Origin: a virus
Virus record (IMG/VR): IMGVR_UViG_3300027863_000016
Coordinates: 1-13,175 of that record
Length of the DNA stretch: 13,175 bases
Strand: one strand, 5' to 3'
The translations under genes were made by a program, and so were the position numbers. Below the pieces are notes generated by a model. It was not told where the DNA came from. It ran no database searches and was given only the letters and a program-made list of their open reading frames with translations. Within the stretch, counting starts at the first letter, position 1, and every line of letters begins with the position of its first letter. Below, in pieces: positions 1,369-13,175 of the stretch.

Positions 1369-1418
1369 AGATCACCCCCGTTTAATCTCGCCACGACGTG
1401 TCTATATCAACCAAATTG

Positions 1419-1447
1419 ATTTTACCACGCCCAGGCTCTCCTGTCAA
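1419..1447 (-). promoter_or_regulatory. Sigma-70/SigA-type promoter for the 688-1368 gene
   Basis: The minus strand reads TTGACA (1447-1442), a 17-nt spacer, then TAAAAT (1424-1419), about 50 nt upstream of the ATG. Confidence 0.7.
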
Positions 1448-1468
1448 TGCCCCTGGAAAAGATTTATT

Positions 1469-1496
1469 CATCCCGGTCGCCTCGTCCACCGGGATG
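1469..1496 (-). terminator. 8-bp perfect hairpin; possible terminator of the integrase transcript or a regulator site
   Basis: catcccgg (1469-1476) pairs with ccgggatg (1489-1496) across a 12-nt loop. On the minus strand it is followed by AATAAATCTTTT. It sits just upstream of the 1419-1447 promoter. Confidence 0.35.
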
Positions 1497-1580
1497 GATC
1501 TCTGCCCTTCCGCCAGCGCATCTCCCATACACCAGCCAAAGCCGCCGGCCCGCGCCGCCGTAAGCGGGAGGAGTTACACT

Positions 1581-1620
1581 TTGACACCTCGGCTGACACC
1601 TACGGGACCTGATGACACCT
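1581..1620 (+). repeat. Left cluster of three TGACACCT repeats (candidate integrase arm-type sites, P arm)
   Basis: TGACACCT occurs at 1582-1589, 1594-1601 and 1613-1620. The block tttgacacctNNNNctgacacctacggg recurs at 1822-1849. Confidence 0.6.
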
Positions 1621-1748
1621 TAAAAAAGATTAGAAATAAGGGTACCGGGTTGGGTTCCCGATACCCTGGGGGCCGCACCAGATAGGGCTTCCTTGAATTA
1701 GCTTAACATGGCTTGAAGGTCCGCCATATAATTGGGGTGGTAGAGGCC

Positions 1749-1776
1749 GCAGGTTCAAGTCCTGTCGCTCCGACCA
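1749..1776 (+). other. tRNA 3-prime-end fragment (T-arm, 3-prime acceptor strand, ACCA), probably tRNA-Pro-like; candidate attP core
   Basis: GCAGG-TTCAAGT-CCTGT forms a T stem-loop, followed by CGCTCCG-A-CCA. The implied C1:G72 pair with an A73 discriminator is typical of bacterial tRNA-Pro. No matching 5-prime acceptor strand (CGGAGCG) lies upstream, so this is a fragment and not a gene. Confidence 0.6.
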
Positions 1777-1821
1777 ATAAAATCAAGGGGTCCGGGGTTT
1801 GAAGATAGGGTAGGGGAGAGG

Positions 1822-1849
1822 TTTGACACCTAAACTGACACCTACCGGG
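1822..1849 (+). repeat. Right cluster of two TGACACCT repeats (candidate arm-type sites, P-prime arm)
   Basis: TGACACCT occurs at 1824-1831 and 1836-1843, in the same orientation and with the same 12-bp spacing as the left cluster. It lies directly next to the integrase stop at 1853. Confidence 0.6.
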
Positions 1850-1852
1850 TCT

Positions 1853-3046
1853 TCAGGTCCCGGATCTTGCTTTACCCTGACCGATCAGGGCGGCCAGCCG
1901 GTCAACGGTGCGGCGTCTGTCCTCAAGGGTAGCATGGCAGTAGGTGCCGATGGTGGTTCTGATGTCGGCGTGGCCCATGAGCACCTGTATGTTTTTCGCC
2001 GGCTCCTGGGCCTGCCCCAGCATGGTTCCGAAAGTGTGTCGGATGGTGTGGACCCGGACTTCTTCCCGCAACCCGGCCCGTTTTAGGATGTTCTTCAACC
2101 GCTTCAAAACATTCCGCGGCTCCATCGGCTGCCCCGTAGGTCTGGCGAATACGAGGTCGTTATCCTGATACTTGTCGCCGTAGAAAAGCCGCTGTTCGTT
2201 CTGTTTTACCTTGTGTGCCTTCAATACCTGGATCACCTCGGCCGGGAGGGGGATTTCCCGCTTGGAGTTTTCTGTCTTGGGGCCCGCAAACGCCAGTTTG
2301 GTTTTCCCCTCGTAAGTCTCGATCCGGTTGACCGATTCTCGAACGATAATGACGCCAGCCTTGAAGTTCACATCCTTCCACCGTAAGGCGCAAAGCTCGC
2401 CCCGGCGCACGCCGGTGTAGAGCATGGTAAAGAAATACGAGTAAAGGTAATCGTCCTTGGCGGTCTCAAGGAACTTGTCCAACTCGGCCTTATCGAAAGG
2501 CATAACTTCCTTGTGTTTGACGGCCGGGCGCTGGGTCAACTCCGCAGGGTTGAAGGGAAGTACCTTCTGCCGGACTGCGTGCTTCAGGCATCCGCTAATC
2601 AACTGGTGGAGGATGGCGATGGTGCTGCTAGAATGGGTCTTGGCCTTCTCGTTGTAGAAGTTCTGCAACATATCCGACGTTATCTTTTGAATCTCCACCT
2701 TGCCTAAAACGGGGAAGATATTCGCCCTGGCATAGGTTTTATACTTGGTGAACGTGCTTTCCCGAACCTTCGGCTTGACGTAAAGGTCTAACCAGCGATT
2801 CGTATAGTCTTCCAGGGTTGCTTTAGTCGGATCGGTATAGGTTCCTGTCTTCACCGCGACCAGATAATCTTCCCGCTTCTTTATAGCATCCTTCTGGGAA
2901 TCGGCATATAGAGTCTTTACCATCTGCTTGCCCGTCAACGGGTCAAAGCCGGTTGTGATCTTCGCCGCCCACCTGCCGTCTTTCCGCTGAAAGACACTTC
3001 CTTCGCCGCTACCGCGTTTGCCTGTCTTCTTGCTCTTGCCTGCCAT
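1853..3046 (-). CDS. int: Tyrosine site-specific integrase (phage integrase family) with an N-terminal arm-binding-type domain
   Basis: Catalytic signature residues are present: R in YTGVRRGELCALRW, HxxR in HTIRHTFGT, and Y in TTIGTYCH. The N-terminus GSVFQRKDGRWAAKIT matches the arm-DNA-binding pattern. SD AAGGGGTGA lies 5 nt before the ATG at 3046. The ORF track extends to a GTG at 3055. Confidence 0.95.
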   Translation of the reverse strand: MAGKSKKTGKRGSGEGSVFQRKDGRWAAKITTGFDPLTGKQMVKTLYADSQKDAIKKREDYLVAVKTGTYTDPTKATLEDYTNRWLDLYVKPKVRESTFTKYKTYARANIFPVLGKVEIQKITSDMLQNFYNEKAKTHSSSTIAILHQLISGCLKHAVRQKVLPFNPAELTQRPAVKHKEVMPFDKAELDKFLETAKDDYLYSYFFTMLYTGVRRGELCALRWKDVNFKAGVIIVRESVNRIETYEGKTKLAFAGPKTENSKREIPLPAEVIQVLKAHKVKQNEQRLFYGDKYQDNDLVFARPTGQPMEPRNVLKRLKNILKRAGLREEVRVHTIRHTFGTMLGQAQEPAKNIQVLMGHADIRTTIGTYCHATLEDRRRTVDRLAALIGQGKARSGT

Positions 3047-3058
3047 CCAACTCACCCC

Positions 3059-3226
3059 TTACTTGAAAAGTTTCCCCATGACCCGGCCGGCCGCCCTGCC
3101 AACCGCCCGTCGAGCTATCCGCTTGTCCACGGTACCCTTCTGGACGGCGTTCACGTCGCCCAGGATTCGGGCTAGGCCGTAGAGCAAGCCCCTGGCGCTC
3201 GAAATCCCGCTCCGTCTCCGTGCCAC
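3059..3226 (-). CDS. Possible small basic protein (55 aa, GTG start)
   Basis: The frame is open from 3337 to 3062, and the only start codon is the GTG at 3226, preceded by GAAGGGGG and 8 nt. The product is VARRRSGISSARGLLYGLARILGDVNAVQKGTVDKRIARRAVGRAAGRVMGKLFK. Its TAA lies inside the integrase SD. It is below the length cutoff of the ORF track. Confidence 0.3.
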   Translation of the reverse strand: MARRRSGISSARGLLYGLARILGDVNAVQKGTVDKRIARRAVGRAAGRVMGKLFK

Positions 3227-3332
3227 CGCGACAACCCCCTTCGTATTTGCCCCAGGAGGGGCGATCCGGGCGCCAGGGGTACAACGTACCTGCCGGCCCC
3301 GTTTGGTTCGTCCTGCCGCGCCTGCGCCGCTG

Positions 3333-3536
3333 TTACCCTATGTTCTTTTCGAGCCACTTAATGAGCCCAGCCTTGGAGATGATCTTCTTTCGCGTGTTGG
3401 TTCTGAGCACCGGGAAACCGTCTACATGGCAGAGGTTGTAGGCGACGTCCCTGCTCACCCCGAGGATCTCAGCCAGTGTTGGGGGACCGAAGAAGTCTGG
3501 CGCGTCGGCCAGTTTAATGGTGCTTTTCAATGCCAT
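3333..3536 (-). CDS. Excisionase-type winged-HTH DNA-binding protein (paralog of 215-424)
   Basis: 67 aa. SD GGAGGAA precedes the ATG at 3536. It shares the DFFGPPTL...AYNL...GFPVLR...IISKAGLIKWLE motif with the 215-424 product. Confidence 0.75.
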   Translation of the reverse strand: MALKSTIKLADAPDFFGPPTLAEILGVSRDVAYNLCHVDGFPVLRTNTRKKIISKAGLIKWLEKNIG

Positions 3537-3692
3537 GATGTCATTCCTCCGTACATAGCCAGATTGTGAATTTTCGCCGGCCGGTGGCCGGATCGGCGCC
3601 GTAGTCCAGCGAAAATAGTAGTGTTTCGCTGTGCCTGGTGGGGCCCTACTAGAGCTGGCCGCCAGGGAGGGCCTTCGCGCGAGGCGGCAGCC

Positions 3693-3896
3693 TTATTCTT
3701 TAGGTTCTGGCTTCGTGCCGGTGTATCCGCTGGCCAGGAACTCTTCAAGCGCTTCCTCGGATATGCGCCAGTTGTTCCCGAGCTTGAACGCCGGCAGCTT
3801 GCCTTCCTTGATCCACCGAAGTACGGTCCCGGTCGGAACAATCAGGTACTTGCCGGCCTGCTCCGTGGTGTACAGCTTCGTGGGTAGCGGGGCCAA
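3693..3896 (-). CDS. Excisionase-family (HTH_17) DNA-binding protein
   Basis: 67 aa. The TTG start immediately follows the recombinase TAA, with SD GGAAGGAGGTGG 5 nt upstream. LYTTEQAGKYLIVPTGTVLRWIKEGKLPAFKLGNNWRISEEALEEFL is the classic pattern. Confidence 0.8.
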   Translation of the reverse strand: MAPLPTKLYTTEQAGKYLIVPTGTVLRWIKEGKLPAFKLGNNWRISEEALEEFLASGYTGTKPEPKE

Positions 3897-4643
3897 TTAA
3901 GCCACCTCCTTCCCGTGTAGACTGTTCTTCAGGACGTTGCTGACGGTGCTGGCGTACCACTTGCTGCCGCCTTTCTTCGTGGGAACCTGTTCCGCGGTCA
4001 GCCGGCGGGCAATCTCGTTGATGGAGGCGCCGGCCACCTTCATGTCCAGGATCCGCTTGACGGTTTCCTGCTCGGCCTCGTTCTCCACCAGGGCGTCACC
4101 GTTCCGGTCGAAACCCAGCGGGGTGGGGCCGTAAACTTCGCCGTGGGCCTTCTTATGGGCCAGTGCCTGGGTGGTACGCTCGGCGATCATGTTCCGCTCC
4201 AACTCGGCAAAGCCGGCGGCCATGGTGATGAAGAACCGGCCCATAGCGGTTCCGGTGTTGATGGCCGTGCCGCCCATGTCGATCAAGTGGAGGCTGACGC
4301 CAGCTTCGTCCCATGCCCGGGTCTGGTTCAAGCAGTCGGCCGCATCCCGGAAAAGCCGGTCCAGTTTCAGGGCCACGATGTTCTTAACACCGCGGTCCGT
4401 GACCTGGGTAAGAAGCTCCGCGCCGCCGGGCCGCGTTGCCAGTTCTTTGCTGGCGCTCACGCCTTCGTCGCGGACGACAGCCACCAGTTCCAGGCCGGCC
4501 ATGGTGCAGTATGCGCGAATCCGTTCTTCCTGCGCCGCCAGGGAAACGCCTTCGGTGGCTTGTTCGGTGGTACTGACCCGGACATATCCCACGGCCTGGG
4601 TAGCGGTAGCCTGCCCGGTGGTTTTCTTGGCGGCCTTTTTCAT
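3897..4643 (-). CDS. Serine recombinase (resolvase/invertase catalytic domain plus a recombinase domain; no zinc-ribbon or coiled-coil extension)
   Basis: AVGYVRVSTTEQ carries the catalytic Ser, and LKLDRLFRD is the DRLxR motif. The C-terminal part GPTPLGFDRNG...EAEQETVKRI...GASINEIARRL...KGGSKWYASTVSNVLKN resembles the recombinase domain of large serine recombinases. The protein ends at 248 aa. SD GGGAGG lies 8 nt before the ATG. Confidence 0.9.
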   Translation of the reverse strand: MKKAAKKTTGQATATQAVGYVRVSTTEQATEGVSLAAQEERIRAYCTMAGLELVAVVRDEGVSASKELATRPGGAELLTQVTDRGVKNIVALKLDRLFRDAADCLNQTRAWDEAGVSLHLIDMGGTAINTGTAMGRFFITMAAGFAELERNMIAERTTQALAHKKAHGEVYGPTPLGFDRNGDALVENEAEQETVKRILDMKVAGASINEIARRLTAEQVPTKKGGSKWYASTVSNVLKNSLHGKEVA

Positions 4644-4677
4644 GTGAACAACCTCCCGGTAACTTTTTCTTGTACTT

Positions 4678-4706
4678 ATTATACATCAACTTCACACATG
4701 GGTCAA
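4678..4706 (-). promoter_or_regulatory. Strong sigma-70/SigA-type promoter for the recombinase-to-integrase gene string
   Basis: The minus strand reads TTGACC (4706-4701), a 17-nt spacer, then TATAAT (4683-4678), 35 nt upstream of the ATG at 4643. Confidence 0.7.
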
Positions 4707-4795
4707 TAGCTCCTTCGTACATAACCGGACGGTCGTGTATAAACTTTTTAAGGGTAGGGGCAGGGGGGAGTGCTGAAATCCACCTCCACCGTTTG

Positions 4796-4840
4796 CCAGG
4801 GAGCGGGTCATCAGGGTCCGGTTATATCTCCGCTCCCTGG
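4796..4840. repeat. Perfect 11-bp inverted repeat enclosing the XRE stop codon
   Basis: ccagggagcgg (4796-4806) and ccgctccctgg (4830-4840) are separated by 23 nt. No U-tract follows on either strand. Confidence 0.8.
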
Positions 4841-5040
4841 TCCGGCAGATACTCAAAAAGGTCCCCGGGCTGACAATCTAAGGCCTCGCACAGCTTATCC
4901 ATCTGGCCCACCTCAATACGCTTGACGGTGCCCAGCCACAAGGCGGATACCGTGTTGGGCCGGATGCCAGTCTTTTCCGCTAGGGCCTTCTTCGTCAGCT
5001 TGTGCCGCCCCATGAGTTCGGCCACCTTGATGTTAATCAA
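4822..5040 (-). CDS. XRE/Cro-CI family HTH transcriptional regulator (short, YozG-like)
   Basis: 72 aa with a TTG start. LTKKALAEKTGIRPNTVSALWLG...MDKLCEALDCQPGDLFEY is the canonical short XRE pattern. Confidence 0.9.
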   Translation of the reverse strand: MINIKVAELMGRHKLTKKALAEKTGIRPNTVSALWLGTVKRIEVGQMDKLCEALDCQPGDLFEYLPDQGAEI

Positions 5041-5084
5041 TTTTTTATTCCCCTTCCCTGTGTGTAATAACCCCTGTCGTTTTG

Positions 5085-5114
5085 ATTATAACAGGGAACG
5101 ATATTTATACGCAA
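5085..5114 (-). promoter_or_regulatory. Candidate promoter for the XRE gene
   Basis: The minus strand reads TTGCGT (5114-5109), an 18-nt spacer, then TATAAT (5090-5085). The -10 box is enclosed by the inverted repeat CCCTGT (5072-5077) / ACAGGG (5091-5096). Confidence 0.5.
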
Positions 5115-5197
5115 CCCAAGGCCGTAAAATATCTATACGGGGTATTGACGATTATCTACAGGGGGTCTAAAATATCGGCAAGGGATAACCGATATCG
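5099..5197. promoter_or_regulatory. Repeat-rich divergent control region (candidate operators)
   Basis: ATATTTATACG (5101-5111) and ATATCTATACG (5129-5139) are direct repeats 28 bp apart. CGATAT/ATATCG half-sites occur at 5099-5104 and 5172-5177, and a CGATATCG palindrome at 5190-5197. These overlap both divergent promoters. Confidence 0.5.
5145..5173 (+). promoter_or_regulatory. Sigma-70/SigA-type promoter for the only plus-strand gene
   Basis: TTGACG (5145-5150), a 17-nt spacer, then TAAAAT (5168-5173). Confidence 0.65.
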
Positions 5198-5212
5198 ACA
5201 TAAAGGGGACGC

Positions 5213-5320
5213 ATGGCGAGGAGGTGGTCACCGGATAGACAAGGAAGTCCCCCGGCACCCCGCTGGCGGCCAACGGGCCGTCAAGAAATCGACAGCGAAG
5301 GAAGGGTGTATCGTGCTTAG
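5213..5320 (+). CDS. Possible 35-aa leader ORF overlapping the start of the ImmA-like gene
   Basis: The ATG at 5213 follows AAAGGGGA. The product is MARRWSPDRQGSPPAPRWRPTGRQEIDSEGRVYRA. Its TAG (5318-5320) overlaps the GTG at 5313. There is no recognisable motif. Confidence 0.15.
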   Translation: MARRWSPDRQGSPPAPRWRPTGRQEIDSEGRVYRA

Positions 5321-5834
5321 ATTCCTGGAGACCGTCGCTCACTACTACCGTTTGGAGATACGGTATGAGAACCTGCAGAATGAGCACCCCGGGCGTCTCG
5401 GAGTAGCCCGGCCTGCCAAAGGGCTAATTGTCCTAGATATATCCATTCGCGGGACCCGACAGGAGAAATGCGTTTTGGCCGAGGAGATTGGACATTGCCT
5501 TTATCCCCCCGTTGCAGATCATCGGTTGTTTTACAGCAAGAGGTTTTACACTCTCGATTCACATCAAAAGCGTGATCTGCGCCGCGATGTTTGGAGAGAG
5601 GAGCGGGCCGCCCGTTGCTGGGCTGCCGATGTTTTGATCCCTGACTATTGTTTTTGGGACTTCTTTGATATCGGTCCCCATGAAATGGAAGAATGGTGTG
5701 AGCGCTTCGATGTTGAGCCATGGCTTGTGGCTTTTAAGATTGCCTACCTACATAGTAAGGGGCGCCAGTCTGGCGGTCGGTTCTTTAAGTGGCACCAGGC
5801 CGTAAAGGGGTCATGTGTGCGTGCGCTGGCGTGA
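5313..5834 (+). CDS. ImmA/IrrE-like (M78 metallopeptidase fold) protein with a variant metal-binding motif
   Basis: The likely start is the GTG at 5313, preceded by GAAGGAAGGG and 6 nt. The ORF track start at 5082 lies upstream of the promoter. LIVLDISIRGTRQEKCVLAEEIGHCLYP...EERAARCWAADVLIPDYCF aligns by eye with the ImmA pattern (...FTLAHELGH...E.EAN.FAA.LLMP), but HExxH reads EEIGH here. Confidence 0.6.
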   Translation: MLRFLETVAHYYRLEIRYENLQNEHPGRLGVARPAKGLIVLDISIRGTRQEKCVLAEEIGHCLYPPVADHRLFYSKRFYTLDSHQKRDLRRDVWREERAARCWAADVLIPDYCFWDFFDIGPHEMEEWCERFDVEPWLVAFKIAYLHSKGRQSGGRFFKWHQAVKGSCVRALA

Positions 5835-12985: not shown

Positions 12986-13175
12986 AGCCGACCGCCCTCC
13001 CATCCCCTCAGCCGGTCCAATGCCTCAGTCCTGGTCCGCCGGTCGCCCAGGTCGCGGAGATCAGCCTCGACCCGCTCCAGGGCCTGCATGATGGACGGCC
13101 CCCGAACGACGTCGGTCAGGGCCATCCGCCGCAAGCTGGCGGCCGTCGCAGTGAACGCAGCTTCCGGATTGACGG
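12982..13175 (-). CDS. C-terminal part of the junction-crossing 76-aa ORF (partial at the window edge; 13049-13175 duplicates 1-127)
   Basis: This is the same frame as feature 1-164 after joining the ends. The TGA at 12984-12982 overlaps the GTG start of the initiator gene. Confidence 0.5.
   Translation of the reverse strand, partial: VNPEAAFTATAASLRRMALTDVVRGPSIMQALERVEADLRDLGDRRTRTEALDRLRGWEGGRL
13049..13175. repeat. Terminal direct repeat, copy 2 (circularisation overlap)
   Basis: Identical to bases 1-127. Confidence 0.95.

Follow-up and report, generated by a model that had tools for sequence, protein, structure and literature searches.

A short serine recombinase and its candidate 30-bp site in a 13-kb viral element that also encodes a tyrosine integrase

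Why should a small mobile element that encodes a tyrosine integrase carry a serine recombinase as well? The question is raised by the virus record IMGVR_UViG_3300027863_000016, a complete record of 13,175 nt that is referred to below, at its full length, as the window. Terminal direct repeats of 127 nt (1-127 = 13049-13175) indicate a circular unit of 13,048 nt. On the minus strand a serine recombinase of 248 aa, here called SR, is followed by two small helix-turn-helix (HTH) genes of the HTH_17 type (HTH_17a and HTH_17b), a short basic open reading frame (ORF) and a tyrosine integrase next to attP. An initial annotation of this DNA had described two recombinase classes in one co-directional gene string beside attP, which we confirmed. 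It had also listed a multimer resolvase, an invertase and a second integration system as possible functions of SR, and had found no obvious target site. We identified a 30-bp dyad beside the SR gene that is proposed here as the cognate site; this site, the family-wide evidence for it and the reassignment of HTH_17a to SR are the main gains of the analysis. Among the functions listed, resolution of multimers is favoured at about an even chance, a second integration system is retained as a minority reading, and the invertase falls on the single site.

The short serine recombinase and its family

SR matches the catalytic domain PF00239 in full. The match to the recombinase domain PF07508 covers only positions 2-52 of 102, so that the full recombinase domain (about 100 aa) is absent and the protein ends at profile position 52. 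No zinc-ribbon and no HTH_7 (PF02796) match was obtained in a Pfam search of SR. These profile results agree with the initial annotation, which had described a catalytic domain plus part of a recombinase domain without the zinc-ribbon/coiled-coil region. The AlphaFold model of SR (mean predicted local distance difference test score, pLDDT, 90.6) is compact and consists of the catalytic domain, the long helix E, a beta-hairpin and three helices that represent the first half of the recombinase domain. The solved folds closest to this model are the N-terminal halves of large serine integrases, with ~240 columns aligned. SR possesses the Ser nucleophile and the Arg/Asp/Arg cluster by which the serine recombinase superfamily is recognized.

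A word-indexed search returned 3,257 homologs of near-equal length. The top 120 of these are 225-254 aa long, with few exceptions, and are 58-84% identical to SR. Using an unfiltered exhaustive search, we obtained 694 cluster representatives at <1e-30; the best 150 are mostly 220-260 aa and match as far as their C-termini, and about eight of them are long forms (470-530 aa, 39-48% identity). In an alignment with the long forms every short member stops after one and the same helix, at the point where, in the long forms, the remainder of the recombinase domain and the zinc ribbon follow. Among cultured phages the matches, phi105 Int (474 aa) for example, were full-length integrases of ~33% identity. 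When viral contigs were scanned with the single SR protein no close relative appeared, and the scan was redone with other alignments. Public names of the homologs are generic ('recombinase family protein', 'DNA invertase Pin-like'). The residues R22, S24, D95, R96 and R99 are conserved in 261/262 sequences, which argues that catalysis is under selection. Judged by its sequence, SR is intact and a member of a large uncharacterised family of ~233-aa serine recombinases, and it is predicted to be catalytically competent. The initial annotation had proposed a domain search and a phylogeny as checks. The former settled the architecture; a quick tree of 79 sequences, with an unresolved backbone, placed the long forms in two or three clades among the short ones.

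The closest relative, 84% identical (contigs L003/L004/L005), differs at the nucleophile itself: its SR carries S24N (YVRVNT), with the reading frame open and the dyad kept. Its tyrosine integrase matches that of the window only to residue 289 and lacks the C-terminal catalytic part. Because this second enzyme is truncated too, we regard the element as probably a decaying, immobilised copy. S24N was considered as a sign of a non-catalytic role and was dropped on the same ground.

Some other relatives stand in different surroundings. A 121-kb contig of an Actinobacteria metagenome-assembled genome (MAG; L006) encodes a 63%-identical family member without an HTH_17 neighbour. It adjoins a PLD-SNF2 helicase and an Eco57I-type methyltransferase, and the locus resembles a defence island. 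In about 20 viral contigs (L057-L085) a ~470-aa gene for the terminase large subunit is overlapped at its start by a distant relative of SR (34-40% identity, ~225 aa), which occupies the usual place of the small terminase subunit.

The 30-bp dyad and the genes that accompany it

Comparison of the regions upstream of the SR gene in the window, in the 84% relative and in a 60% relative revealed a dyad before the -35 box that is common to all three. In the window it reads TTTATACACGACCG-TC-CGGTTATGTACGAA and lies 8 nt upstream of the -35 box. Its two 14-bp half-sites around a 2-bp centre have the canonical layout of a serine recombinase crossover site. We infer that SR binds this dyad, and we propose the dyad as the cognate site of the family, where binding and crossover would both take place.

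The association of site and gene extends well beyond the window. The core pattern TACAnnnCCGnnCGGnnnTGTA has one copy in the window, even at 3 mismatches, and half-site searches of the window gave no second convincing copy. Across the fetched loci, with their 6-10-kb flanks, the pattern at ≤2 mismatches adjoins the SR gene and occurs almost nowhere else. A dyad of this type is found beside SR genes in >25 loci from many phyla. Loci that fail the exact pattern have a co-varying 12+2+12 dyad at the same place, for example CGTATAAAACCG-AA-CCCTTTTATACG and CATGTACTCACG-GT-CATGAGTACATG. Across phyla the dyad, whether identical in type or co-varying, precedes the SR gene by 50-150 nt. Among 81 non-redundant loci, 25% have a dyad (≥10/12 arm matches) within 300 nt upstream, compared with 2.8% of control windows, and these dyads lie mostly 100-140 nt before the codon of a conserved N-terminal Tyr. 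Between dyad and -35 box there are ~8 to ~35 nt, depending on the locus. Loci that lack an HTH_17 neighbour (e.g. L129, L114 and L125) still have the dyad; it is thus SR, and not the HTH protein, that the site accompanies. Elsewhere in the window, a half-site-like sequence TGGCTATGTACGGA that keeps the GTACATA core is present on the minus strand at 3548-3561, just before the ribosome-binding site (RBS) of HTH_17b. It could be an extra SR contact or chance.

We also determined how often the dyad occurs per replicon. Two more complete circular phage genomes (58.9 and 41.1 kb) contain it exactly once, beside the SR gene, so that with the window it is found once per complete circle in 3/3 cases. 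In each of 5 MAGs (2.1-6.3 Mb, different phyla) it was likewise found exactly once, a lower bound because MAGs are incomplete; reversed-pattern controls gave 0. One site per replicon or genome excludes an invertase or an intramolecular deletion switch. In integrated elements that end in a tyrosine integrase beside host genes (L089, L107 and L129) the dyad is intact, which argues against its being the attP of those integrations.

DNA homology between related loci breaks at the dyad. In two independent pairs, the window with L003 and L099 with L100, homology starts at the outer edge of the dyad (-14), and the left flanks of L099 and L100 differ right up to it. Another locus, L101 from a Moorellaceae MAG, has a hybrid dyad at 5595-5624, TTTATATTGCTCGG-ca-CGGTTTTGTACAGC. 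Its homology to L099 and L100 (78-89%) begins at the central dinucleotide (+2/+4), and the SR-distal half-site is replaced by foreign sequence. A crossover with a foreign site would be expected to leave such a pattern, and the breaks as a group may have been left by exchange at the dyad. No second dyad or half-dyad was seen at the left end of a 1.2-kb insertion that adjoins the dyad in the L003 relative.

In its nearest relatives SR is also accompanied by a small HTH gene. The start codon of HTH_17a abuts the SR stop codon, and its RBS (AAGGAGG) lies inside the last SR codons. An abutting HTH_17 gene is also present in L003, L007, L009, L011, L013, L021, L087-L089, L099-L101, L104, L106, L110 and L163. 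Thus, in the closest relatives the HTH_17 gene abuts or overlaps the SR stop codon, among them elements, and one complete phage, without a tyrosine integrase; in the broader family, an HTH_17 neighbour at this position occurs in 20/89 loci. The retention of the partner where there is no tyrosine integrase, together with the position of its RBS inside SR codons, indicates that HTH_17a belongs with SR. We propose that it is an accessory or directionality protein of SR and that the two are translationally coupled. The initial annotation had called both HTH_17 genes excisionase (Xis)-type. A role as Xis of the tyrosine integrase is plausible only for HTH_17b, and HTH_17a is the one that we move to SR.

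A tyrosine integrase downstream of SR recurs as well. Among 60 non-redundant loci, nine have a tyrosine integrase ≤4 kb downstream on the same strand, none has one downstream on the opposite strand, and upstream there was only 1+1. Further cases of SR followed by a co-directional integrase are the window itself, L005, L163 and L120. Such loci come from Bacillota, delta-proteobacteria, Acidobacteriota, Burkholderiales and one alpha-proteobacterium. The window and the 84% relative share two homologous blocks, one from the dyad through SR to HTH_17a and one from the integrase to attP; the stretch between them, including the HTH_17b region, is not homologous. The cassettes of SR and of the integrase are thus modules in their own right, frequently joined. 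In L098 an ORF 59% identical to the 55-aa basic ORF lies between the HTH_17 gene and the integrase.

Possible functions of SR at the dyad

Given conserved catalysis and a single site in each replicon, SR must have a pair of such sites as its substrate. Multimer resolution systems classically consist of a lone recombinase and one site, and one recombinase, one site per replicon and a site beside the gene are what was found here. We favour, giving it about half of our confidence, the reading that SR is a multimer resolvase that would cut multimers back to monomer circles. Short relatives of SR occur on small non-integrating plasmids (Polaromonas pW9NP1, Oscillatoria, Picosynechococcus and Nocardia pC1). 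The 7.2-kb plasmid pW9NP1 (L154) encodes RepA, ParA and a 223-aa family member, with a consensus-type dyad, TGTACAAAACGG-AA-CGGTTTTGTATG, ~355 nt after the gene and a weaker dyad 67 nt before it. One of the two complete phages, G001 (the IMG/VR record of L021; 58,890 nt, terminal repeats), encodes SR, HTH_17 and a ParA-type ATPase (6e-38) and contains one dyad, and no tyrosine recombinase was found in this complete genome. G001 is a candidate plasmid prophage with the layout of one that would need a dimer resolvase.

In the element itself, multimers and concatemers are expected from its replication initiator and terminase genes. An SR dimer would bind the dyad, and synapsis of two dyads would have to await dimers or concatemers of the excised element. 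By exchange at the central TC these multimers would be reduced to monomer circles, which the tyrosine integrase, probably helped by HTH_17b, would integrate at tRNA-Pro. SR would be co-expressed with the genes for excision and integration. This layout suggests that the reaction at the dyad is resolution. Autoregulation of its own promoter is a likely second role of SR, to which the constant placing of the dyad, ~100 nt ahead of the start codon, points.

Several points weigh against the multimer resolvase. The once-per-genome counts from MAGs are the lower bounds mentioned above. The dyad is single, and no clear accessory subsites of the kind present in classical res sites accompany it, which leaves the selectivity for resolution unexplained; repeated accessory subsites were looked for and none was found, and the HTH_17 protein is the candidate partner. 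The second complete phage, G002, has SR and the dyad without ParA and without any other recombinase, an arrangement that would fit an integrase equally. The hybrid dyad of L101 could be an integration junction. Finally, the closest relative carries S24N, though in an element that is probably decaying.

An integrase is indeed the alternative that we take most seriously, although it is unlikely, with perhaps one chance in a handful. SR would then be a minimal serine integrase, the dyad its attP and HTH_17a its excisionase (directionality factor), and the element could enter either at tRNA-Pro by means of the tyrosine integrase or at a dyad-like chromosomal site by means of SR. In sequence and fold SR is nearest to the large serine integrases, and it is the sole site-specific recombinase, with the dyad beside its gene, in the complete phages G001 and G002. 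The half-site swap in L101, with homology from the central dinucleotide, resembles an attL/attR junction, and the unlike left flanks of L099 and L100 point in the same direction. An excisionase-type partner is present as well; the large serine integrase of phiRv1 works with an excisionase-type directionality factor, and a resolvase-like small serine recombinase is reportedly listed as the integrase of Ralstonia phage phiRSM. However, the dyad survives intact in the elements that are bounded by a tyrosine integrase, each of the 5 genomes holds one site and no flanking pair, and the family also resides on small plasmids and in a phage with ParA. Moreover, SR lacks the zinc-ribbon and coiled-coil parts by which large serine integrases tell attP from attB, and the element already has a complete module of tyrosine integrase and attP. 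A smaller probability attaches to SR as a regulator only, controlling the excision/integration operon from the dyad with catalysis irrelevant in this element. The near-fixed distance of ~100-140 nt from the dyad to the conserved N-terminal Tyr codon, beside promoter-like hexamers, would suit such a role, as would the open frame and dyad of the 84% relative, in which Asn replaces the nucleophile Ser. Against it, the catalytic residues are invariant in 261/262 homologs, the S24N element also has a truncated tyrosine integrase and is probably decaying, and the spacing from dyad to -35 box is variable.

Slightly less probable again is that dyad, SR and HTH_17 form a portable 'docking' cassette by which any two replicons that meet in a cell and share the same, highly conserved dyad would be fused into a cointegrate and later parted. 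The partners could be a capsid-less 13-kb satellite and a helper phage, or a phage and a plasmid. Such a cassette would account for the homology breaks at the dyad's edge or centre and for the ~60% identity of the cassette between phyla. If this were true, a satellite could ride within the DNA of its helper, or be packaged in concatemeric form and turned into monomers once it arrives, and gene modules would be shuffled exactly at the dyad. We consider it very improbable that SR is an invertase of some DNA segment, for example a promoter or a tail gene. Many homologs are publicly named 'DNA invertase Pin-like' and a PHROG 'DNA invertase' family is the second-best match, but the 13-kb circle has one site even at 3 mismatches, the two phages and five genomes have one each, no inverted pair of sites flanks a segment, and there is no HTH_7 domain. 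The least credible reading, with hardly any weight, is that SR is a truncated pseudogene of a large serine integrase, which the initial annotation would have accepted if homologs were always >450 aa. PF07508 is only half matched and a few homologs of 470-530 aa (42-48% identity) exist, but the short length is conserved in thousands of homologs from many phyla with a shared end helix, the best 150 representatives being mostly 220-260 aa. The catalytic residues are conserved and the fold is compact and confidently modelled. HTH_17a starts at the SR stop codon, so there is no remnant of a zinc ribbon downstream.

Layout of the element and comparison with known systems

The features of the locus are collected in the table below. 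The promoter, the small basic ORF and the tyrosine integrase beside attP are all present as the initial annotation had given them. Four promoter-like sites were found in 1400-5200, two of them on the minus strand, compared with 1.7 expected from shuffles.

Table. Features of the SR locus and its surroundings in the window
Feature	Position	Strand	Evidence
Promoter TTGACC-17-TATAAT, sigma-70-type	4706..4678	minus	11/12 consensus positions matched
RBS GGGAGG upstream of SR	4657..4652	minus	sequence read
Serine recombinase (SR), short, like large serine integrases, 248 aa	4643..3897	minus	PF00239 5e-35
HTH_17a, 67 aa, HTH_17/excisionase family	3896..3693	minus	PF12728 2e-15; TIGR01764 'excise' 1e-15
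HTH_17b, 67 aa, HTH_17-type	3536..3333	minus	PF12728 5e-6, right at family cut-off
Basic ORF, 55 aa	3226..3059	minus	without family match
Tyrosine integrase, 400 aa	3055..1853	minus	PF00589 7e-31; PF14659 4e-15
attP core, 3' part of tRNA-Pro(GGG), anticodon loop to acceptor end	1732..1776	plus	
Arm-type TGACACCT repeats, three, one side of attP core	1580..1621	plus	
Arm-type TGACACCT repeats, two, opposite side of attP core	1822..1848	plus	
30-bp dyad, candidate SR site	4714..4743	read on minus strand	
Cro/CI-type (XRE) HTH protein, 72 aa, directly upstream of dyad	4822..5040	minus	HTH_26 3e-20
ImmA-like metalloprotease, divergent from XRE gene	5082..5834	plus	phrog_87 3e-12

The genes from SR to the integrase are co-directional and separated by gaps of 0, 156, 106 and 3 nt. 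On the minus strand no terminator-like site precedes 1667..1639. In the two larger gaps (3537-3692 and 3227-3332) RNA structure did not exceed that of shuffled controls (z -0.64 and +0.33), and an Rfam search gave no credible match. The short gaps and the lack of terminator-like sites or significant RNA structures between the genes suggest a single transcript from SR through the integrase; of the one operon in the initial annotation, the co-directional order is thus observed and the common transcript inferred only.

The tyrosine integrase has candidate catalytic motifs in its translation (VRRGE, HTIRH, GHADIRTT and the Tyr in GTYCH). The attP core, 45 nt, is identical to the 3' part of a Bacillota tRNA-Pro(GGG) and is flanked by five arm-type repeats (at 1582, 1594, 1613, 1824 and 1836). 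PF00589, a SAM-like domain, arm-type repeats and a core at a tRNA 3' end place this enzyme with the heterobivalent lambda-type integrases. No complete tRNA was found in the window. Upstream of the tRNA-Pro fragment, at 1690-1731, there is a degenerate D-arm remnant with a 7-nt insertion, so that the attP region is a pseudo-tRNA rather than a bare 3' fragment.

The XRE HTH protein is likely to be the repressor of the element. Other genes encode a tape-measure-like protein, the large and small terminase subunits and a replication initiator; among the larger ORFs scanned, no match to a capsid or portal family was obtained. Two further small ORFs of the excisionase/HTH type lie on the minus strand at 424-606 and 215-424 (phrog_66 and phrog_7338), which brings the genes of this type in the window to four.

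Together, these observations would define a widespread class of minimal ~233-aa serine recombinases that go with a simple site of 30 bp and a small HTH protein and are spread, across many phyla, over phages, satellites, small plasmids and integrative elements. They also add to the known layouts of small integrating elements a recurrent module, a tyrosine integrase gene preceded by a serine recombinase gene and its site. The presence of two recombinase classes in one mobile element is already known; P1, for instance, has both Cre and Cin. In the literature we found no description of the short SR family, its site or its partner. A paper from 2026 that treats small serine recombinases as defence-system markers deals with homologs of the Gin-like EF_B0058, which are a different group.

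Several known systems resemble SR in part. With the Tn3/gamma-delta, Sin, beta and RK2 ParA resolvases SR shares a length of ~200-250 aa, a site beside its own gene and promoter, one site per replicon and the occurrence of its family on small plasmids, and by analogy with them autoregulation would be expected. In contrast to these small resolvases, the C-terminal domain of SR matches PF07508 and not HTH_7, and SR has one dyad in place of two or three subsites and a separate HTH_17 protein as its partner. The Cre/loxP system of P1 is similar, by analogy, in the role proposed for SR, with one simple site per genome that serves to monomerise or cyclise the DNA of a phage or plasmid, and the layout of G001 matches it; Cre, however, is a tyrosine recombinase, of another enzyme class and mechanism. 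Elements of the IS607 family combine a serine catalytic domain with a MerR/excisionase-type HTH, and weak NCBIfam IS607 matches were obtained for HTH_17a (to the N-terminus, 0.007) and for SR (to the catalytic part, 1e-10). In IS607 the HTH is fused N-terminally, whereas here HTH_17 is encoded by a separate downstream gene, and SR retains a DNA-binding domain of its own at the C-terminus as well as a specific dyad site.

The large serine integrases (phiC31, Bxb1, A118 and phi105 Int) provide the best sequence and fold matches over all 248 aa of SR, and they share with it a simple short dyad with a 2-bp centre. Unlike them, SR stops after the third helix of the recombinase domain, without zinc-ribbon and coiled-coil parts, its half-sites are 14 bp compared with their ~20-25 bp, and its dyad stays intact in integrated elements. 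If the reaction of SR proves simple and free of host factors, these compact enzymes with their co-varying sites could serve as tools for genome engineering, and the comparison with large serine integrases would reveal what the zinc-ribbon and coiled-coil parts contribute in the latter.

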